A stretch of 61,990 nucleotides of DNA from a virus. Its lineage: Duplodnaviria; Caudoviricetes. This document shows positions 4,430-58,776 of this stretch, one piece after another (within the stretch, counting starts at the first letter, position 1; each line of letters opens with the position of its first letter). The DNA lies in IMG/VR virus record IMGVR_UViG_3300005537_000027, positions 1 through 61,990 of that record; one strand, 5' to 3'. A model generated the notes under the pieces. The model was given only the letters and a program-made list of their open reading frames with translations, was not told the DNA's origin and searched no databases. The translations under genes and the position numbers were made by a program.

Positions 4430-4791
4430 CTTCGGTGCATGAACTGCTGTTGGAACTCAATCGGACCTATACCGAAATTCACGAGTTGCGTAGTGCCTTG
4501 GCTGATGCTCTTGTGACTTTCGATATGGGAGCTGAGCACGCCACCAAGTATCACCTCCGCTACTCTGCTGTCATCCACCGCGCAAGGCTGGAGAACCCGA
4601 ATGCTGACAAACGACTTTCAGTTGGTGCCCCTGGCAGCCATTGTTGTGAACCGAGCGGAACGCCAGCGCCGGAAGGTGGACACGACGGGACTGAGGGACT
4701 CGATCCAGCGCAACGGCCTCATCAACCCGATAGTGGTGACGAGGGAGATGGTGCTGGTGGCGGGGGAGCGGAGACTGACGGCGTGCACTGA
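4426..4791 (+). CDS. hypothetical protein
   Basis: AAGGAG upstream of GTG; the 3' half overlaps the ParB-MTase gene. Confidence 0.35.
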   Translation: MTSVHELLLELNRTYTEIHELRSALADALVTFDMGAEHATKYHLRYSAVIHRARLENPNADKRLSVGAPGSHCCEPSGTPAPEGGHDGTEGLDPAQRPHQPDSGDEGDGAGGGGAETDGVH

Positions 4792-5998
4792 GCTTGGGCA
4801 TGTCACCATCGCGGTAAGGTTCGCGGAGGACCTCTCGCCGTTCGAGCTCTCGGTGATTGAGCTTGAGGAGAACCTCAAGCGCACGGATCTGAGTTGGCAG
4901 GACGAGGCCCAGGCCATCGCGAAGCTCCACGAGCTTTATTCCAGCGCCGAACCGGGGTGGAGCCAGGCCAAGACCGCACAGGCCCTGAGCATGGCCCCGG
5001 CGCAAGTGTCCACGATCCTGAGAGTGGTGAAGGAGTTCGCCGACCCCCGCATCGCCGGAGCCACCGGCCTCCAACCCGCTTACAACATCATCCAGCGCGC
5101 GGACGAGCGCCGCATTGGTGATGCTATGGGGGACATCGTCCAGGCCAACGCGGATATCTTCGCGGAGCGGCTGGTGGTGGAGACAGGTGGACTTGTGCCG
5201 ACTGATGCAACCGTAGCAATCGGTAAGCCTGTCAACAAGCCTATCTTGGCAGCTACTCCGGTGGCCCCTCCGGAGTCCATCCTCAACACCTCGTTCCTGG
5301 ACTGGGCACCGCAGTACACCGGGCCCAGGTTCTCGTTCATCCACTGCGATTTCCCCTACGGGATGAATGTGTTCGGAGGAGCCATGTCCGGTCGGGACAA
5401 GTGGAACACCTACTCCGACACCCCCGACACCTACTGGGATCTGATCCGCTGCCTCTGCCTGAACCTGGACCGAGTCATGTCCCCCAGCGCCCACCTCATG
5501 TTCTGGTTCTCGATGGAGCACTATGAGGCCACCCGCCGGATCTTCCGAGACCTCGCCCCGTCGCTGGTGTTTTCCCCGTTCCCGCTGCTGTGGCAGAAGT
5601 CCGACAACGTCGGCATCTTGCCGGACTCCAACCGAGGCCCGCGCCGGATCTACGAGACCGCGATGGTCGCCTCCCGCGAGGACCGTTTCATCGTCAAACC
5701 CGTCTCCAACGCCATCGCCGCCCCCACTGACAAGGCCCACCACCCAAGCGCCAAGCCCGTCCCCGTGCTCAAACACTTCTTCCAGATGTACGTGGACGAG
5801 AACACCACGCTGCTCGATCCGACTTGCGGAGGTGCCTCGGCTCTGATCGCCGCTGAGGCTCTGGGCGCCAAGCGTGTCGCTGGGTGTGAAATGGACAAGG
5901 AGCACTGCGCCAACGGCCGTTCCGCTCTCCGCCAGTTCCGCTCCCTCCGTGCCGCCGCGCAGGTGGTCTACGAGAAGGACCGGAAAGATGGTCGCTGA
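4601..5998 (+). CDS. ParB/Srx-like domain fused to N6/N4 DNA methyltransferase
   Basis: LRDSIQRNGLINPIVV...LVAGERRL...EENLKR (ParB-N plus HTH); FIHCDFPYG (DPPY-like), HPSAKP, LLDPTCGG (beta-class MTase order). Confidence 0.9.
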   Translation: MLTNDFQLVPLAAIVVNRAERQRRKVDTTGLRDSIQRNGLINPIVVTREMVLVAGERRLTACTELGHVTIAVRFAEDLSPFELSVIELEENLKRTDLSWQDEAQAIAKLHELYSSAEPGWSQAKTAQALSMAPAQVSTILRVVKEFADPRIAGATGLQPAYNIIQRADERRIGDAMGDIVQANADIFAERLVVETGGLVPTDATVAIGKPVNKPILAATPVAPPESILNTSFLDWAPQYTGPRFSFIHCDFPYGMNVFGGAMSGRDKWNTYSDTPDTYWDLIRCLCLNLDRVMSPSAHLMFWFSMEHYEATRRIFRDLAPSLVFSPFPLLWQKSDNVGILPDSNRGPRRIYETAMVASREDRFIVKPVSNAIAAPTDKAHHPSAKPVPVLKHFFQMYVDENTTLLDPTCGGASALIAAEALGAKRVAGCEMDKEHCANGRSALRQFRSLRAAAQVVYEKDRKDGR

Positions 5999-45433: not shown

Positions 45434-45529
45434 GCCCCCAGAGGCCGAGGTTCTAGCCTAGGGCCACCAGCCCCCATTCGCTGGTGGTCCGTGGGTGGAA
45501 CTTCCCCCACCACAACAAGGAAACTCCAA

Positions 45530-47167
45530 ATGGCAACTAACGGCAAAGCTTCCCCTCAGGCCACCACCCAGGCGCTTTCGGCCCAAGACGCCCTGATGTC
45601 GCTCATCACCTCCGCCCTCCAGGGCAAGGGGACGGACTGGGCGCACCAAGACACCGAGATCCTTCGCGAGGGGACCAAGATCGTTCTCCCCTCCACTCCC
45701 GGTCCGATGCCCATCCCGGCGGCGATCGCAGCCCTTCAGCGCAAGCAGAAGGACGAAGAAACCGAGATGGCCGTGCACGAAGTCATCGACACTTACCCGA
45801 TGGACGGTGCAGTGGCGTTCGTCAAGGCGCTTCGCGAGATCTACGGCTGGGCCAGCCCGACGCCGATCATGAGCTGGTTCGGTCCGCAGCCTCCGGAACT
45901 CCTGACGGTCCAGACCGGCCCGGATACCAAGGTCCAGGTCCCCTGGGGCGAGTTCACTGTCCCCGGCATCGAGAACACCATCGGGGTCTCCACCCAGCAT
46001 ACCGACACCGGCCCTCACTTCGTCATCTACGGCAGGGTCAAGAAGCGCGAGCAGTTCGTGTTGCTGGAACTCGCCCAGCGCACCCGCGAGATCCTCGCCC
46101 GCGAGAGCATCTACAAGGGCCAGGCCATTCGCCTGCGCACGGACTCGGACGGGGACATCGACCACAACAAGCCGCCGGAGTTCCTCCCCACCTCCTACAT
46201 CCGGCCGTCGGAGCTGATCCTCAACGCGGATGAACTCGACCAAGTCGACACCGCGCTCTGGACCCCCATCCGACACACCGCCGAGTGCGTCAAGCACGGC
46301 ATCCCGCTCAAGCGCGGGGTCCTGCTGGAAGGCACCTACGGCACGGGTAAGACCATGACCGCCAACGTTACCTCCAAGGTCTGCGTCCAGCACGGGTGGA
46401 CATTCATTCTCCTCGACGATGTCCGGGCACTCGAAGATGCCCTGCTCTTCGCCAAGCGCTACTCCCCCGCAGTCGTCTTCGCCGAAGACATCGACCGGCT
46501 GCTGGAAGACCGGGACCAGGAGGCCAACGACCTCCTCAACACCATCGACGGCGTGCTGACCAAGAACTCCCAGGTCATCACCGTGCTCACCACGAACTTT
46601 GTCGAGAAGATCGACAAGGCGATGCTGCGGCCGGGTCGCCTGGACGCGGTGATCTCCATCCGCACCCCCGACGCCCACAGCGTCGCACGGCTGATCCACC
46701 TCTACGCTCGGGGCCTGATGGCCGAAGGCGAGGATCTCGCGGACGTCGGCACGGTACTGGCGGGCAACATCCCCGCTACCATCCGCGAGGTGGTCGAACG
46801 TAGCAAACTGGCCATGATCGCCGGTGGCAGGACCCAGATCACTGCCAACGACCTCATGATCAGCGCGAAGGGGATGAAAGACCACCTCACCCTGCTGGCC
46901 GAAGGCCCCAAGGTGCAGTCGCCGGCCGAACGCCTGGGCTCGGTGCTTATCAACGCGCTCGGCTCGCCCGACGCCCTTGCCGCCGATCTGCTCCGGCAGG
47001 AGGCCCAGGCCCTCAAGCTCCAGGTCTACGAACTCCGCAAGAACGTGGTTCAGACCGGCGCCCAGTCCGACCATGTGGCACGGACGTCCACCGCTGTCCT
47101 CGCCGAGGGCCACAAGCAGATCAACAAGAAACTCGACACGGTTGTCGAAGCAGTCGTCGGCAACTAA
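45530..47167 (+). CDS. AAA+ ATPase (classical clade, FtsH/Cdc48-type module)
   Basis: RGVLLEGTYGTGKT, VVFAEDID, LTTN, IDKAMLRPGRLD (second region of homology). Confidence 0.92.
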   Translation: MATNGKASPQATTQALSAQDALMSLITSALQGKGTDWAHQDTEILREGTKIVLPSTPGPMPIPAAIAALQRKQKDEETEMAVHEVIDTYPMDGAVAFVKALREIYGWASPTPIMSWFGPQPPELLTVQTGPDTKVQVPWGEFTVPGIENTIGVSTQHTDTGPHFVIYGRVKKREQFVLLELAQRTREILARESIYKGQAIRLRTDSDGDIDHNKPPEFLPTSYIRPSELILNADELDQVDTALWTPIRHTAECVKHGIPLKRGVLLEGTYGTGKTMTANVTSKVCVQHGWTFILLDDVRALEDALLFAKRYSPAVVFAEDIDRLLEDRDQEANDLLNTIDGVLTKNSQVITVLTTNFVEKIDKAMLRPGRLDAVISIRTPDAHSVARLIHLYARGLMAEGEDLADVGTVLAGNIPATIREVVERSKLAMIAGGRTQITANDLMISAKGMKDHLTLLAEGPKVQSPAERLGSVLINALGSPDALAADLLRQEAQALKLQVYELRKNVVQTGAQSDHVARTSTAVLAEGHKQINKKLDTVVEAVVGN

Positions 47168-49989: not shown

Positions 49990-50224
49990 AGACGCCCAGG
50001 CGCTGTGTGAGCAGATCGCAAAGCTCTGCAACAACGACGGCGGCGAGGTCTTTGACCTTTTCTCGGACCTGATGGCGACGTTCATTGCTCAGCGCGTCTC
50101 CGGCGGTAAGGTCGAGCAGCAACTCGCAGTCCAGATCTTCCTCACCCAGCTTCGCCAGAAGCTCGGCCACGAGCCACCGGACCCGATGGTGATCCACCCC
50201 GCCCAGCCCCAGACCCAGCAATAG
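49973..50224 (+). CDS. hypothetical helical protein
   Basis: RBS GGAGG. Confidence 0.65.
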   Translation: MSVSNEDAQALCEQIAKLCNNDGGEVFDLFSDLMATFIAQRVSGGKVEQQLAVQIFLTQLRQKLGHEPPDPMVIHPAQPQTQQ

Positions 50225-50300
50225 CCCCAGCAGCACCTTCCCACGCACCTTAACCACAACTAACTTCCATGCACCTGCGGGTGCGGAGCCCAGACCACAA

Positions 50301-50717
50301 ATGGCACGGTTGACTTGTACTCTCGTTGGAATGCACTTCCGGCCTCCGGCCAAAGCCATCCTGGCGAATTTGCCAGCCGGTGCTCAGCTCGACCTAGTCC
50401 CTGAGCCCGACAATATGTACGACGAGCACGCTGTCAAGGTGGTGGTGGACCCTGGCGAGGTCCCCTCTACCCAATACGAAGAACTCGACAACGCCATGGC
50501 TGGACAAGGCCACGACTCTGCCGAGTTCCTCAAAGGTCCCCCGTTCCATCTGGGGTATATTGGTTCCAAGCCCGGTAGGAAAGGTCCCATGCCAGGGATC
50601 ACATACGCGCCGGATCTCGCCCCCGTCCTGGCCCAGGCGGATGACTACAAAGCCGAACTCGGGTTTGACCTGAGCGGCGACCCGATCGTCTACGTCACAA
50701 TCATGGCTCACGAGTAG
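50301..50717 (+). CDS. HIRAN domain protein
   Basis: LVGMHFR...L.LVPEPDN.YD.HAVKV...HLGYI. Confidence 0.85.
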   Translation: MARLTCTLVGMHFRPPAKAILANLPAGAQLDLVPEPDNMYDEHAVKVVVDPGEVPSTQYEELDNAMAGQGHDSAEFLKGPPFHLGYIGSKPGRKGPMPGITYAPDLAPVLAQADDYKAELGFDLSGDPIVYVTIMAHE

Positions 50718-50739
50718 CCAAACCAGGGAGCACATCGAA

Positions 50740-51600
50740 ATGGCTGAAAGTACCCGCCCGGACCTTGATCCGGTAGCACGCCTCACCCGCGACTTGCGCA
50801 ACGCTGCCAGAACCCTTTCGAGCGACGAGGCCAGATTTCTGGTCGACGCATACTACGCGATGCAACGAGACCGCATTCGCGCCGCCCACCAGGAACGGAC
50901 CCTCGCCGAGGGCTCCGAACCGCACGACACCATGCAGTGGTTGTTGGTGCAACGCGAGACCCTGGAAAAGCAGGTCGCTCGCGCGCTCGACGTCTACAGC
51001 AACGCGCATCCCGCTGGGGAATGGGCGCGGTCTATCTGCGGCATCGGCCCGATCATCGCGGCCGGGCTGCTGGCCCATATCGACATCACCAAAGCCCCCA
51101 GCGTCGGGCACATTTGGCGTTTCGCCGGCCTCGATCCCACGGTCAAGTGGGAGAAGGGTCAGAAGCGGCCCTGGAACGGTGCGCTCAAGCGTCTCTGCTG
51201 GCTCATCGGGGAGAGCTTCACCAAGGTCTCCTCGAACGAGAACGACACCTACGGGAAGATCTACAAGGCCCGGAAGGAACTCGAAACCCAGCGTAACGAG
51301 GCGGGGCATTACGCGGACCAAGCCAAGGCTGCCCTGGCCGCGAAGAAGTTCGGAGCGGACACGCAGGCCCGGAAACACTACGAGGCCGGCCGTCTCCCGC
51401 CGGCACGTATTCATCTCCGTGCGCAGCGGTATGCGGTGAAGCTCTTCCTCGCGCACTTCCACCATGTGTACTACGAGATCCACTTCGGCAAGGCTCCGCC
51501 GATGCCCTATATTTTCACCGCCGAGGCCGCGATCACCCACGGCCAGCACGTTCACTATATCGCGCCCCCGAACTGGCCGATCGCCCAAGCGGCGGAGTAG
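50740..51600 (+). CDS. tasA: TasA-like TIGR-associated protein (Nop/IS110 C-terminal fold, no nuclease domain)
   Basis: Coiled coil, then SI.GIGPIIAAGLL...IWRFAGLDP...WN..LK, A.RYAVKLFL; no N-terminal DEDD RuvC or HNH; a dual-repeat array starts ~10 nt after the stop. Confidence 0.85.
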   Translation: MAESTRPDLDPVARLTRDLRNAARTLSSDEARFLVDAYYAMQRDRIRAAHQERTLAEGSEPHDTMQWLLVQRETLEKQVARALDVYSNAHPAGEWARSICGIGPIIAAGLLAHIDITKAPSVGHIWRFAGLDPTVKWEKGQKRPWNGALKRLCWLIGESFTKVSSNENDTYGKIYKARKELETQRNEAGHYADQAKAALAAKKFGADTQARKHYEAGRLPPARIHLRAQRYAVKLFLAHFHHVYYEIHFGKAPPMPYIFTAEAAITHGQHVHYIAPPNWPIAQAAE

Positions 51601-51610
51601 CCCAGGCGCC

Positions 51611-53290
51611 CAGCCGGAAGGATGGAGTGTACCTACGAAGCTGAGCGAACCGCGATTCTGGAGTGTACCATAGCTGCCGAGTGAGCCTGCATATCTGAGT
51701 GTTCCGAGCTTCGCAAGTGAGCCAGCTAGGGGTTGATTGTACCGTGAAGTGGGAGCGAGCCGTTGAACTTGAGTGTACCACAGCTTGAGAGCGAGCCAAT
51801 GGAGTTGAGTGCACCAAAACATTGGAGCGAGTCGCCGTATTAGAGCGCACCGTGTACGAAGAGCGAGCCAGAACTTAAGAGTGTTCCGAAGTATGTGAGC
51901 GAGCCCGAACCCGTGAGTGTATCGAAATTGCCGAGCGAGCCTTAGGCATTGAGAGCGCCGTGCAAGTGGAGCGAGCCGTCGAGCAAGAGTGTACCATTGC
52001 AAAGGAGCGAACCGGGTGATTTGAGTGTACCCGCGTTGCGGAGTGAACCTTGAGACGGAGTGTGCCGTAGAGCTGAGTGAGCCGCAAGTTGTGAGAGTTC
52101 CGTTGGTAGCGAGCGAACCGAGCGTATGTGAGCACCGATATTGTAGAGTGAGCCATGTAGGTGTAGTGTACCACGCCACATGAGCGAGCCATTAATCTTG
52201 AGCGTTCCATTGTCAGGGAGCGAGCCGCTCGTAAGGAGTGTTCCGTATCGCGTGAGCGAGCCACTGGTTACGAGTGTACCGCGTTATGAGAGCGAGTCAT
52301 TTGTGATGAGTGTACCAAAACCTATGAACGAGCCATATGCTCAGAGCGCACCGTATCTAGAGAGCGAGCCATATGCTCAGAGTGTTCCGTTCCTCTTGAG
52401 CGAGCCATTGATCTGTAGTGTACCGTGGTATGAGAGCGAGCCTTTTGCCCAGAGCGCACCGTCATTTGCGAGCGAACCAAGCAGCATGAGCGCCCCGAAC
52501 GTGCTGAGTGAGACGAATAACTCGAGAGTACCGTAAAAAGGGATCGAGCCATGATCGTTGAGAGTACCATTGTGAATGAGCGAGCCAGCTTGTTAGAGAG
52601 TCCCGTATCCTGAGAGCGAGCCAACTTGCTAGAGTGTCCCATCACTGGCGAGCGAGCCTTAATTGCAGAGCGTACCGTAAAGTGTGATCGAGCCGTAGCT
52701 GTAGACGAGCGAACCACAAGCGCCGAGAGTACCATCATTGACGAGTGAGCCACCAGCGCTGAGTGTACCGTGACCCCGAAGCGAGCCCTATCAGCCACGA
52801 GTGTACCGTTGTCCGGGAGCGAACCATAACATATGAGCGTCCCGAAGCCTATGAGTGAGCCAACGGCAATGAGTGTGCCGTACCCTGTGAGCGAGCCGAA
52901 CACCGAGAGAGTACCAGCCCGCATGAGCGAGCCACTGTCCTTGGAGTGTACCATACCACGGGAGCGAGACAAACTGGTCGAGAGTACCGTGTCAAAGGAT
53001 CGAACCGAGAGTTTTGCGTGTACCGCTGTGCCTGAGTGAGCCGACAGCTTTGAGCATACCGAAACGCTTGAGCAAGCCGTTATGGCCGATTGTACCACTT
53101 CACCTGAGCGAGCCATGCTGTTCGAGTGTACCATTCCACGGGAGCGAGCCAGAACGTCCGAGCGTACCGTTCCATTTGAGCGAGCCATGATGTCCGAGAG
53201 CACCATTCCATCTGAGCGAGCCGTTATGTCCTAGCGTACCGTTCCGCCTGAGCGAACCTTCTTCGCCGAGAGCGCCATCTTCGCCGAGTC
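51611..53290 (+). repeat. TIGR-type guide RNA array, about 46 units of 36 nt
   Basis: Alternating 9-nt repeats GAGCGAGCC and GAGTGTACC separated by variable spacers, mostly 9 nt; I counted 46 GAGTGTACC-type repeats from 51625 to 53268. Confidence 0.93.
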
Positions 53291-53309
53291 ACCCCTACCG
53301 GAGCTAAGA

Positions 53310-54830
53310 ATGGATTTCACCCCAACCGACGAGCAAGCCGCAATAGTCCAGGCCGCGCTCACCACCACTGACTCGTTGATGGTTGTCTCTTACGCTGGGT
53401 GCACCAAGACCACAGCACTTAAGCTCGTGGCCAACGCCCTTCCACCGGGACCGGCTCTGGCCTTGGCCTTCAGCGTTCCTACCAAGAAGGAACTTGAGCG
53501 CCACTTCCCTGCCCATATCACGATCATGACCCTCAATGGGCTCGGCCATCGTGCCTGGGCTAAGGCCGTCAACAAGCCCCTTGTCGTGGACGACCGTAAG
53601 GTTGGGCGCCTTATCACTCGTGTCGCCCGAGAGGAGAGCTTCGATCTCTCCTCTGAGCAATGGACCGCAGTCCGTGCCCTGGTCAACAGCGCCCAGGTCA
53701 ACGGTCTTGTCCCTTCCTCCTACCCCCACAAGGGTCTCGTGGCAGACCGCCCAGAGATCTGGATGGACATGGCCGATATGCTGATGCTACCGGACGCCGA
53801 GCCCCTACTCCCGCTGGCCCGAGCCACCCTGGTCGCTGCCATCCAGGAGGCATTCCAGGGCACCATCTCCTACGCCGACCAGATCTACATGAGCGCGCTG
53901 TTCAACGGCGCCTTCCCCCGCTACCCGCTCGTCATGGTCGACGAAGCCCAAGACCTCTCCCCTCTCAACCACGTCCAGATCAAGCGCGCAGCGCTCGGCA
54001 GGCTCATCGTAGTGGGAGACCCCAAGCAGGCCATTTATGGCTGGCGCGGGGCAGACCACACCTCGATGGACACCCTGCGGACGCTCCGCAAGGACTGGAC
54101 TGACCTAGCGCTCACCCAGACCTTCCGATGCCCCTCGGAGGTGGTGGCCCGGCAGCAGGTTCACGCCCCTGGTTTCACCGCTGCCCCAAAGAACCCGGCC
54201 GGGCTTGTGCTGGAGTGGCACCATCAACACACCCCCTGGACCTGGGCCTTGGTGGACCAGCCCCGGAAGACCATCGGCGTGCTTTGCCGCAACAACGCCC
54301 CACTGCTCGGACTGGCCATGAAGCTCATCCGCCAGGGGGTAGGGTGCGTTATGGCAGGGCGGGACATCGGCAAGGGCCTTGTGGCTCTTGCCCGTAAAAT
54401 CGTTCCTGTGGACTCCATCCCCGCCGAGGAGTGCAAAGCCCTCATCAACCAATGGGCGGATGATGAGATCATCCTGGCCAAGGCCAACGACAAACTCGAA
54501 AAGGTCGCCGGGATCGAGGACCGCCGAGATTGCCTTCTGGTTGTGCTGGAAACTGGAGTGGCCGACGCGGGGACTCTCCGCAACATTCTCACGGACTTGT
54601 TCTCCCGTGAGGCCGGCCGAGTCACCCTTTCCAGCATCCACCGAGCCAAGGGCTTGGAATGGGACATCGTGGTTCACCTGGACCCGTGGCGTATCCCCTC
54701 CAAGCAGGCTCGCAAAGCCGCCCAGCTCGGCGACCAGCGCCCCCTCCAGCAGGAGTTGAACCTGCGCTACGTGTGCGAAACCCGAACCAAGCACACCCTT
54801 ATCCTGGCCAACCTGGAGGACTTCACATGA
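53310..54830 (+). CDS. UvrD/Rep-like superfamily 1 helicase
   Basis: PTDEQ, YAGCTKTT (variant Walker A), VDEAQD, VGDPKQAIYGWRGA, LTQTFRCP, LCRNNAPL, SIHRAKGLEW, YV..TR. Confidence 0.92.
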   Translation: MDFTPTDEQAAIVQAALTTTDSLMVVSYAGCTKTTALKLVANALPPGPALALAFSVPTKKELERHFPAHITIMTLNGLGHRAWAKAVNKPLVVDDRKVGRLITRVAREESFDLSSEQWTAVRALVNSAQVNGLVPSSYPHKGLVADRPEIWMDMADMLMLPDAEPLLPLARATLVAAIQEAFQGTISYADQIYMSALFNGAFPRYPLVMVDEAQDLSPLNHVQIKRAALGRLIVVGDPKQAIYGWRGADHTSMDTLRTLRKDWTDLALTQTFRCPSEVVARQQVHAPGFTAAPKNPAGLVLEWHHQHTPWTWALVDQPRKTIGVLCRNNAPLLGLAMKLIRQGVGCVMAGRDIGKGLVALARKIVPVDSIPAEECKALINQWADDEIILAKANDKLEKVAGIEDRRDCLLVVLETGVADAGTLRNILTDLFSREAGRVTLSSIHRAKGLEWDIVVHLDPWRIPSKQARKAAQLGDQRPLQQELNLRYVCETRTKHTLILANLEDFT

Positions 54831-58026: not shown

Positions 58027-58363
58027 CCCCAGTCGACCGCAAGTCGCCTACCGCGCCGCATACGTCGGCCCGGATGGCAAGGCCATCGCGCCCCTCCCGC
58101 AGCCGTGTGTCCGCCCGCTTGAGGACGGTCATTTCATGGTGTCCGCGTGGCTCATCATGACCCACGACTACCAGTGCCGCGAGTACTTCCACTGGTGCGA
58201 GGATGCGAAGGCGTTGGCCGCGCTCATGGTCGCGTTCGCCGAGGACCCGGAGGAGACCTTGCGGAAGGAGTTCGCCTATCAGGGACTTCAGGCCAAGCCC
58301 CCGATGGTGGCTCACGAGCCGGGACCGAAGAAAGAGTTCAAGCTCTCGGATATCGGGCTATGA
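58013..58363 (+). CDS. hypothetical protein ending in FKLSDIGL
   Basis: RBS GGGAG; ATGA coupling to the next gene. Confidence 0.7.
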   Translation: MHYTDPSRPQVAYRAAYVGPDGKAIAPLPQPCVRPLEDGHFMVSAWLIMTHDYQCREYFHWCEDAKALAALMVAFAEDPEETLRKEFAYQGLQAKPPMVAHEPGPKKEFKLSDIGL

Positions 58364-58776
58364 GCGCCCCCACCGTCAAGCGCACCTATCAGGCGTGGCT
58401 GGATATGAAAGCCGAGGACGTCCCCGTGTATCCTCGGTGGGAAATCTTCGCTAACTTCCACGCGGATATGGGAGACGCGCCGGAAGGCCATCGAGTGGTG
58501 ATGGTCGAGTCCGACAAGGGCTTTGTCCCCACCAATTGCATCTGGTCCCAGGGGGACCTCGGCCCCACGCTCATGCTCGTGGAGAACGGCGTGAGCATGA
58601 ATTTGGCCCAGGCCTGTCGGCTGCACGAGGTCTCGCCCTCCGCGGTCTGGTATCGGATGCGGACCAAGCGCTGCAGCTTTGGCGAAGCGGTGAGCTATTG
58701 CCAAGCCCAGCTCCGCGGCCGAGAGGACGCCATGGCTGCGCTGGACGCTGCCGCCTTAGACCTTTTCAAGCGCTAG
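58360..58776 (+). CDS. degenerate HNH-endonuclease-like protein with HTH
   Basis: TY.AW..MK...V..RW..F.NF.ADMG..PEG...G..P.NC.W scaffold, without the usual DRIDNN segment. Confidence 0.65.
   Translation: MSAPTVKRTYQAWLDMKAEDVPVYPRWEIFANFHADMGDAPEGHRVVMVESDKGFVPTNCIWSQGDLGPTLMLVENGVSMNLAQACRLHEVSPSAVWYRMRTKRCSFGEAVSYCQAQLRGREDAMAALDAAALDLFKR

Follow-up and report, generated by a model that had tools for sequence, protein, structure and literature searches.

A probable dual-repeat TIGR-TasA system in the genome of a tailed soil phage

What does a phage do with a 286-residue protein labelled as a transposase and, immediately behind its gene, a long run of 36-nucleotide (nt) repeats? The question is raised by positions 50,740 to 53,290 of the virus record IMGVR_UViG_3300005537_000027 from IMG/VR, the whole 61,990 bp of which were analyzed and are referred to here as the window. 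An initial annotation, made from the letters of the DNA, had read the locus as a nuclease-less RNA-guided system of the TIGR-Tas type (TasA class) with about 46 dual-spacer guides, and this reading was borne out by homology, by the predicted fold, by the lack of a nuclease domain, and by a 36-nt dual-repeat array. We consider it very probable that the locus is a dual-repeat TIGR-TasA system of a tailed soil phage of ∼62 kb, working in the manner proposed below. Table S1 of Faure 2025 (PMC12045711), which by its heading covers "all TIGR systems" with coordinate and sequence, has an identical protein of 286 aa in rows 444 and 445 of the sheet ProteinInfo, the former with coordinates 50739_51600 on the + strand and the latter from a second contig. 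The locus is therefore already known; it is a member of a family published in 2025-2026 and adds no new kind of system.

The gene, tasA (50740..51600, + strand), encodes 286 aa, in which a short helix at the N terminus is followed by a coiled coil (residues ∼28-89) and then by a Nop domain (residues ∼91-286). Pfam returned a sole match, to Transposase_20, the IS110 C-terminal family (residues 97-136, E = 4.5e-5), and found no nuclease family in the protein. The full-length PHROG family, phrog_4285, carries the label "transposase" (E = 1.5e-50). Among proteins of solved structure, the best sequence match was TasR (9mty_A), with an E value of 3e-14 for the single sequence and 4.4e-24 when a 36-sequence profile (alignment A1) was searched against PDB sequences; the title of entry 9mty describes a TIGR-TasR structure with tigRNA and target DNA. 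TasH was also found, with E values of 2.3e-8 (single sequence) and 3.9e-13 (profile), and the IS110-type recombinases IS621 and ISCro4 were far weaker by profile, at 1.2e-3 and 7.6e-3.

A model of the protein was built with AlphaFold2 on alignment A1 (predicted local distance difference test [pLDDT] score of 86.5, predicted template modeling [TM] score of 0.84). The model consists entirely of helices: residues 28-89 make up a long hairpin, and a globular domain comes after it. The top ten Foldseek matches were all TasR or TasH chains (E values of 4e-7 to 2.5e-6, TM scores of 0.53-0.69), and IS621 came next at 1.7e-3. A Foldseek-independent structural search of 48,161 chains with VIA-align gave TasH (21kl_A; Z = 19.6, 224 aligned residues, root mean square deviation of 3.6, model residues 26-281 against chain residues 66-309) and TasR (9mty_B; Z = 19.1, 193 aligned residues, root mean square deviation of 2.6, model residues 29-280 against chain residues 112-322), then ISCro4 at a Z score of 13.2, and after that unrelated coiled coils at 9.4 and lower. 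Structure prediction and profile search, the check proposed in the initial annotation, thus both placed TasR and TasH on top, with IS110 proteins well behind. The alignments begin past the HNH and RuvC domains of TasH and TasR, and the window protein has ∼27 residues before its coiled coil, which points firmly, on sequence and predicted structure, to the nuclease-free TasA class. The locus was also compared with box C/D snoRNPs, in which a Nop protein (Nop5 or Nop56/58) works with fibrillarin and L7Ae on guide RNAs with K-turns. No Nop5 chain appeared among the 50 matches listed by the wide structural search and no fibrillarin-like family in the PHROG scan, although absence from either list excludes nothing.

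The closest structural relative, TasH of the SpTIGR-TasH system from Salicola phage CGphi29 (PDB 9w03, 9w04, and 21kl; PMC13421893), shares ∼22% identity with the window protein over the structural alignment. TasH cuts DNA and carries an HNH nuclease at its N terminus, whereas the window protein begins at the point that corresponds to the start of the coiled coil in TasH. TasR of TaTIGR-TasR (PDB 9mty) shares with the window protein the C-terminal motif GGHV.YI.PP.W; it differs in its N-terminal RuvC domain (residues 1 to ∼111). The IS110 recombinases, which use a bridge RNA (IS621, 8wt6; ISCro4, 9t56), have a similar Nop-like RNA-binding domain with GIGP/FAGL motifs, and both align with the window protein over this part only. 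The window lacks the DEDD domain, the single bridge RNA, and the transposon ends of IS110 elements, and its protein resembles theirs far less than it does the Tas proteins. In a phmmer alignment the IS621 segment ESGS, which we take to be the site of the catalytic serine, lies opposite EKGQ in the window protein.

The array that follows the gene comprises 46 units of 36 nt on the + strand (51612..53294), arranged in sub-arrays of 30 and 16 units. Tandem Repeats Finder reported periods of 36 and 72 nt between 51752 and 53278, and a register walk resolved 93 half-units of 18 nt from 51625 to 53294. Each unit runs from the 3' half of an edge through spacer A, the loop, and spacer B to the 5' half of the next edge, with GAGCGAGCC as the edge repeat and GAGTGTACC as the loop repeat; individual repeats often carry one to four mismatches from the consensus. 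Nine-nucleotide spacers predominate (86 of 92 spacers, with 41 of the 46 units having 9 + 9 nt), and the other six, of 8, 10, or 11 nt, fall in units 4, 13, 15, 33, and 37. A single exact spacer duplicate was found, spacer A of units 21 and 22, in agreement with the earlier statement that nearly all spacers are unique. The unit given there, AGCC-[A]-GAGTGTACC-[B]-GAGCG, was likewise correct.

Sub-array 1 (units 1-30, 36 nt each; 51612..52694, + strand) opens with a 5'-truncated edge, AGCC (51612..51615, + strand), 11 nt past the tasA stop; the G and C of this edge pair with positions 4 and 3 of the edge that follows. Sub-array 2 (units 31-46; 52707..53294, + strand), delimited by the register walk, ends in a degenerate 3' edge, GAGTCACCC (53286..53294, + strand). 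The array is interrupted once, at 52686..52715, where the order is edge, 12 nt, edge; the 12-nt junction between the two consecutive edges, GTAGCTGTAGAC (52695..52706, + strand), breaks the phase and resembles a scar left by the loss, truncation, or partial deletion of a unit. Arrays are described in Faure 2025 (PMC12045711) as typically opening with a 5'-truncated edge and closing with a 3'-truncated edge and a rho-independent terminator, and here truncated or degenerate edges are found at both ends. The same source gives an array size of "most often 5 to 15" units, and the 65,635 tigRNAs in 4,126 dual-repeat arrays counted in Xu 2026 (10.64898/2026.09.09.750476) correspond to a computed mean of ∼16 units per array. 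The 46-unit array is long, yet its length is not unique among the relatives sampled, the largest of which (L028) has 92 half-units.

Pairing between edges bears on the array as a predicted RNA. Faure 2025 (PMC12045711) describes two base pairs at the ends of processed tigRNAs, in which the 3' half of an edge meets the 5' half of the edge before it. We tested for covariation unit by unit, using as controls pairing within the same edge copy, partners shifted by one to three units, and 100,000 shuffles. In each of the 46 units, the downstream edge's position 4 and the upstream edge's position 7 form a pair (36 C-G, 9 U-A, and 1 U-G), and positions 3 and 8 pair in 45 of 46, including two U-A pairs, one A-U, and one G-U; the sole mismatch (T.C) is in unit 30, just upstream of the phase break. 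Pairing within the same copy reached only 38/46 and 40/46, and pairing with shifted partners 37 to 39 of 43 to 45. The observed values were equaled by none of the 100,000 shuffles for the 46/46 pair and by 23 for the 45/46 pair. Among relatives, 547 of 550 distinct units pair, and in the 125 related units whose flanking edges differ, 122 pair, against 74 in the same-copy control.

As far as base pairing can tell, these results show that the functional unit would run from mid-edge to mid-edge, with GAGCGAGCC as edge and GAGTGTACC as loop, and that every unit appears to be under selection. They also show the + strand as the likely RNA strand, because on the opposite strand each G-U pair would become A.C. 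The predicted cut must fall between edge positions 4 and 7, a range that fits the AGCC...GAGCG unit. The two-base-pair helix that TasR builds from two edge halves (PMC12045711) is thus supported in the window by covariation. This unit-by-unit covariation of the terminal pairs is new here, as are the CC-purine box, the target searches with controls, negative in outcome, and the clade-wide AT-richness of spacers that are described below.

Related loci carry the same arrangement. A same-strand GAG....CC dual-repeat array lies beside the gene in 43 of 50 related viral loci; one of the others is a doubtful detection and six are without an array, some of them being cut by contig ends. Because 43 of 50 related loci carry it, and because the pairing was reached by 0 of 100,000 shuffles, the array beside the gene is more than chance. 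The family is large, with 5,301 proteins at E ≤ 1e-3 among 8,000 candidates scored; at 50% identity there are 2,841 representatives at E ≤ 1e-3 and 1,370 at E ≤ 1e-30. An 82%-identical relative (P0002) lies on a 63-kb contig; neither it nor the second contig with the identical protein came back from the viral or metagenome scans. Relatives borne on genomes come from many phyla; Acidobacteriota assemblies carry the closest of them (62% and below), no more than a hint at the host. No Tas name was found among the 120 homologues listed. Many of the 50%-identity representatives are 400-995 aa long with two matched stretches, and insertions or fusions are common in the clade. Some homologues (P0112, L018, and L045) have an insertion of ∼35 residues with CxxC...H motifs after the GIGP..AGL..HI helix (A1 columns ∼165-205), which may be a zinc-binding module.

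Both repeats of the window begin with GAG and finish with CC, so that the box D and box C motifs, which a symmetric dimer would need in both, are common to edge and loop. At what is formally the first spacer position, CC is followed by a purine in 72 of 80 nine-nucleotide spacers here and in 1000 of 1054 in relatives. The layout therefore appears to be effectively a 10-nt repeat followed by 8 free positions. SpTIGR has the same plan, a purine after box C giving effectively a 10-nt repeat and an 8-nt free spacer, and has the edge core GCGAGCC in common with the window. The box motifs of TaTIGR are UG...CCA, against GAG...CC(R) in the window. The initial annotation had proposed that GAG...CC repeats might define a distinct subfamily. 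Cores common to this array are found in the published reference arrays, in the FpTIGR loop core AGTGTACC, the SpTIGR edge AAGCGAGCCA, and the Ta/ParTIGR edge TGCGAGCCA, so the proposal was dropped; on these core sequences, the repeats appear to define no new subfamily.

The nearest published counterparts of the whole locus are dual-repeat TIGR-TasA systems, for example FpTIGR/FpTasA of Flavonifractor plautii, which, as described in PMC12045711, is also a phage-carried, nuclease-free, solo protein of coiled coil and Nop domain with an adjacent array of two alternating 9-10-nt repeats, 8-9-nt spacers, and a 36-nt period. The FpTIGR loop core is identical to that of the window; the likeness noted between the proteins is one of organization. 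Set against the dual-repeat TIGR-TasA systems as published, the window differs in its 46 units, in the lack of a terminator-like site after the array, and in a six-residue insertion in the Y/H loop discussed below. Nuclease-free CRISPR interference, in types IV and V-M, is named as analogous in Faure 2025 (PMC12045711), and like the window these types place a guide-RNA array on a mobile element and use a DNA binder that does not cut. They differ from it in repeat length (25-36 nt, against 9 nt), in the fold of the protein, and in lacking a split guide that reads both strands with no protospacer adjacent motif. Membership of the locus in CRISPR-Cas was ruled out by its two alternating 9-nt repeats with 9-nt spacers and by the PHROG scan of 72 window open reading frames (ORFs), which found no Cas family.

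How might the system work? tasA and the array lie within one co-directional string of genes and are probably cotranscribed. The + strand transcript would be cut inside each edge, within GAGC^G^A^GCC, most likely by TasA itself through a loop containing Y257 and H270. This would yield up to 46 RNAs of 36 nt with the order 5'-AGCC, spacer A, GAGUGUACC, spacer B, GAGCG-3', the ends of which would form the two-base-pair helix (edge positions 3-8 and 4-7). By analogy with solved Tas complexes, one such RNA would be held by a TasA dimer; a homodimer prediction for TasA gave a median of 0.41 against a mark of 0.42. Published work describes the two spacers as pairing with opposite strands of adjacent half-sites, and TasR as cutting to leave 3' overhangs. 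Spacer A would accordingly pair with one DNA strand, and spacer B with the opposite strand in the neighboring half-site, so that the composite target would measure 16-18 bp. Without a nuclease domain, the complex would bind and bend DNA rather than cut it, and the most likely consequence would be a block of transcription or replication on nonself DNA of the host or of rival mobile elements. The steps of processing, dimer binding, DNA binding, and repression are modeled on published relatives: TasA copurifies with 36-nt RNAs (PMC12045711), and guide-dependent repression of transcription and binding of target DNA in electrophoretic mobility shift assays are reported for TasA (10.64898/2026.09.09.750476). 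The suggestion in the initial annotation that the complex may repress or block thus has support from a published relative, a TasA described in that preprint as an RNA-guided transcriptional repressor.

The candidate processing loop is encoded at 51508..51549 (+ strand), with the codon for Y257 at 51508-51510 and that for H270 at 51547-51549. SpTasH is reported to cut its own precursor via Y289 and H296 in a flexible C-terminal loop (PMC13421893), and conservation of the Y/H dyad in dual-repeat systems is reported in a preprint (Xu 2026, 10.64898/2026.09.09.750476). In a MAFFT alignment these two residues stand opposite Y257 and H270 of the window protein, H270 being invariant in 36 of 36 aligned homologues. 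Residues 259-271, with pLDDT values below 50, are the sole internal stretch of low confidence in the model, which is consistent with a flexible loop.

Several observations weigh against the proposed mode of action. The position of Y257 is Y, W, or F among homologues (W in TaTasR), and six extra residues separate Y257 from H270 relative to most homologues; because of this variation and this insertion, self-processing by TasA via Y257/H270 seems less certain than the rest of the scheme. The published repression experiments used MbTasA, a different TasA (10.64898/2026.09.09.750476). A simple consensus scan found no terminator-like site 3' of the array. No targets emerged. A composite target was taken to be spacer A and then spacer B in reverse complement, from geometric reasoning on published TasR cleavage; such 18-mers had been proposed as a check, and the search, which covered the phage and related DNA, did not return the hoped-for matches. 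In the phage genome with the array masked there was no match at ≤2 mismatches and one at 3 mismatches, against 2.0 for permuted pairings, and the array itself held no composite target at ≤2 mismatches. When 567 distinct guides from the window and 49 relatives were compared with 421 kb of related viral loci, none matched at ≤1 mismatch and nine matched at 2 mismatches, against 12 in edge-centered controls. The 41 regular window guides had no match at ≤1 mismatch in the 1.18 Mb of related loci searched, and two matches at 2 mismatches, against one to seven in controls. Self-regulation through near-perfect matches is therefore unlikely, as far as the phage and array sequences indicate. No window guide is shared with the 804 guides of relatives, the best distance being 5 to 8 of 18, as in controls.

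The spacers are indeed AT-rich, as had been noticed at the outset, with a G+C content of 0.454 against 0.606 for the window. The initial annotation took this as a hint at foreign targets. All 38 related loci that have 8 or more guides show spacers richer in AT than the flanking DNA (by 0.105 on average), and we therefore conclude that AT-richness is a property of the clade or system and not evidence of foreign targets for this phage. A possible reason is that short targets melt more easily, or that AT-rich sites are preferred.

A more ambitious extension can be offered tentatively and is, in our view, possible but unlikely: the array would be a multiplex silencing program, akin to CRISPR interference, directed during infection against many genes of the host or of rival elements, with all 46 guides kept by selection and new guides arising by unit duplication and mutation rather than by capture from targets. 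If this were true, diverged 72-nt duplications at the 3' end of the array would show the birth of guides by duplication and mutation. Units 41-46 (53069..53294) do form a diverged two-unit tandem duplication of 72 nt (Tandem Repeats Finder period of 72, 2.6 copies, 74% matches). Spacer A of unit 41 and that of unit 45 are alike in 8 of 9 bases, and in unit 46 spacers A and B are nearly identical (8/9) and would specify a near-palindromic target. Neighboring units resemble one another in spacer A (3.69 matches at lag 1, against 2.57; reached by 47 of 5000 permutations), and this excess is gone in units 1-39 (2371 of 5000 permutations). Across 32 non-redundant related arrays, at least 11 of 18 matches occur in 2.0% of lag-1 pairs and in 1.7% of distant pairs, so the likeness of neighbors is local to the window and not a family trait. 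The natural targets and role of TasA are described as open in the discussion of PMC12045711, and the locus is a convenient test case for target hunting and for array growth, offering a complete phage genome, one of the longer arrays, and covariation that fixes strand, unit boundaries, and the distinction of edge from loop by sequence alone.

Other explanations of the locus were considered. That the protein is the remnant of an IS110-family transposase and the repeats are unrelated satellite DNA would accord with the Transposase_20 match, with the phrog_4285 label, and with the names of some Joint Genome Institute (JGI) homologues. The "transposase" labels appear, from library dates, to predate the description of Tas proteins; the protein has no N-terminal DEDD/RuvC-like domain, its matches to IS621 and ISCro4 (1.2e-3 and 7.6e-3; Z = 13.2) fall far behind those to Tas proteins (4.4e-24; Z = 19 to 20), and 43 of 50 loci have both gene and array, so we give this explanation almost no credence. 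It is very improbable, too, that the repeat is translated, as a hexapeptide-repeat protein such as SEPxxxSVPxxx on the + strand or as an antisense ORF of 294 aa (52322..53206, - strand) running across the array. The 18-nt period is divisible by 3, and in one antisense frame there are just 4 stops where column shuffles give 10.3 ± 2.7 (4 or fewer in 12 of 1000 shuffles); this frame stays open for 302 codons (17 of 1000 shuffles). The three + frames contain 23 to 35 stops. Among relatives (533 units), 62 to 365 stops occur in every register of either strand, with antisense stops ∼20% below expectation; the antisense openness is probably due to composition. Changes in spacer length shift the frame, the guides of relatives have no spacer in common with the window, and what is conserved is nucleotide pairing across 33 nt, G-U pairs included, rather than codons.

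A different question is whether the array, once functional, is now a decaying relic that the phage no longer uses. The one to four mismatches in repeats, the 6 of 92 odd spacers, the phase break at 52686..52715, and the target searches that found nothing could all be read in this way, but the tasA ORF is intact and, in the homologue alignment, retains all family-invariant residues, and the terminal pairs are kept in 46/46 and 45/46 units through nine U-A and three other compensated changes. Ongoing selection on each unit is therefore needed, and decay is very improbable. Very improbable as well is the proposal that TasA only marks its target and that a separate phage enzyme destroys or unwinds the bound DNA, in the manner of Cascade-Cas3. 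The candidates are a UvrD-like helicase (53310..54830, + strand) and an HNH protein (58147..58773). The helicase gene has its start codon 16 nt past the last repeat, on the same strand and with no terminator-like site between, and its product matches Pfam UvrD-helicase (5.7e-14) and UvrD_C (3.6e-9) and PHROG 1967 "DNA helicase" (8.7e-75). Just upstream of tasA lies a gene for a small protein (50301..50717, + strand) with a weak, subthreshold HIRAN-like Pfam match (E = 4.4e-4). Both the helicase and the HIRAN-like gene are absent from 88 related loci (tblastn, E ≤ 1e-5), and Faure 2025 (PMC12045711) reports no clear association of TasA with other proteins, save for occasional ParB-like genes.

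None of the nine genes flanking the tasA locus, the helicase and HIRAN-like genes included, gave a tblastn match at E ≤ 1e-5 in the 88 related loci. The neighborhood therefore appears not to be conserved with tasA, and gene and array seem to behave as a self-contained cassette without a conserved partner. The virus record is complete according to CheckV (100%), with a G+C content of ∼0.60. PHROG matches among its 72 ORFs identify a tailed phage, with P22-like head, portal, terminase, tail-needle, and ejection genes, and with a replication module of its own (DNA polymerase, primase, exonuclease, a Sak4-like protein, and helicases); tasA and the array sit within a co-directional + strand string of early or replication genes. 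Across 50000..54000, Rfam gave no match at E ≤ 1. Among sequencing runs, a single DNA data set, a soil metagenome that may be the source, was listed as carrying the locus, and no RNA data set. Three promoter-like sites were found where 1.8 were expected, a number that is uninformative. A search of the phage GenBank collection gave no nucleotide match and one distant protein match, in Microcystis phage Mvi-JY20 (25.9% identity).

Three further observations concern other genes and labels. A gene at 4601..5995 (+ strand) encodes a fusion of a ParB_N domain with an N6/N4 DNA methyltransferase (Pfam E values of 2.7e-6 and 3.7e-9) and matches several ParB-like PHROGs. ParB-like genes are reported to be operonic with some tasA genes (Faure 2025, PMC12045711); the gene here lies far from tasA, at a distance of ∼45 kb. 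In the same early region as tasA, 45491..47164 (+ strand) encodes a 558-aa AAA ATPase (Pfam AAA, 4.4e-15, with a weak nSTAND3 match) that belongs to phrog_10440, a family of unknown function (2.1e-122). Finally, phrog_4285 and the JGI names of four homologues (P0031, P0071, P0087, and P0089) still read "transposase (IS116/IS110/IS902)," a label that is misleading for these nuclease-less, array-associated proteins.

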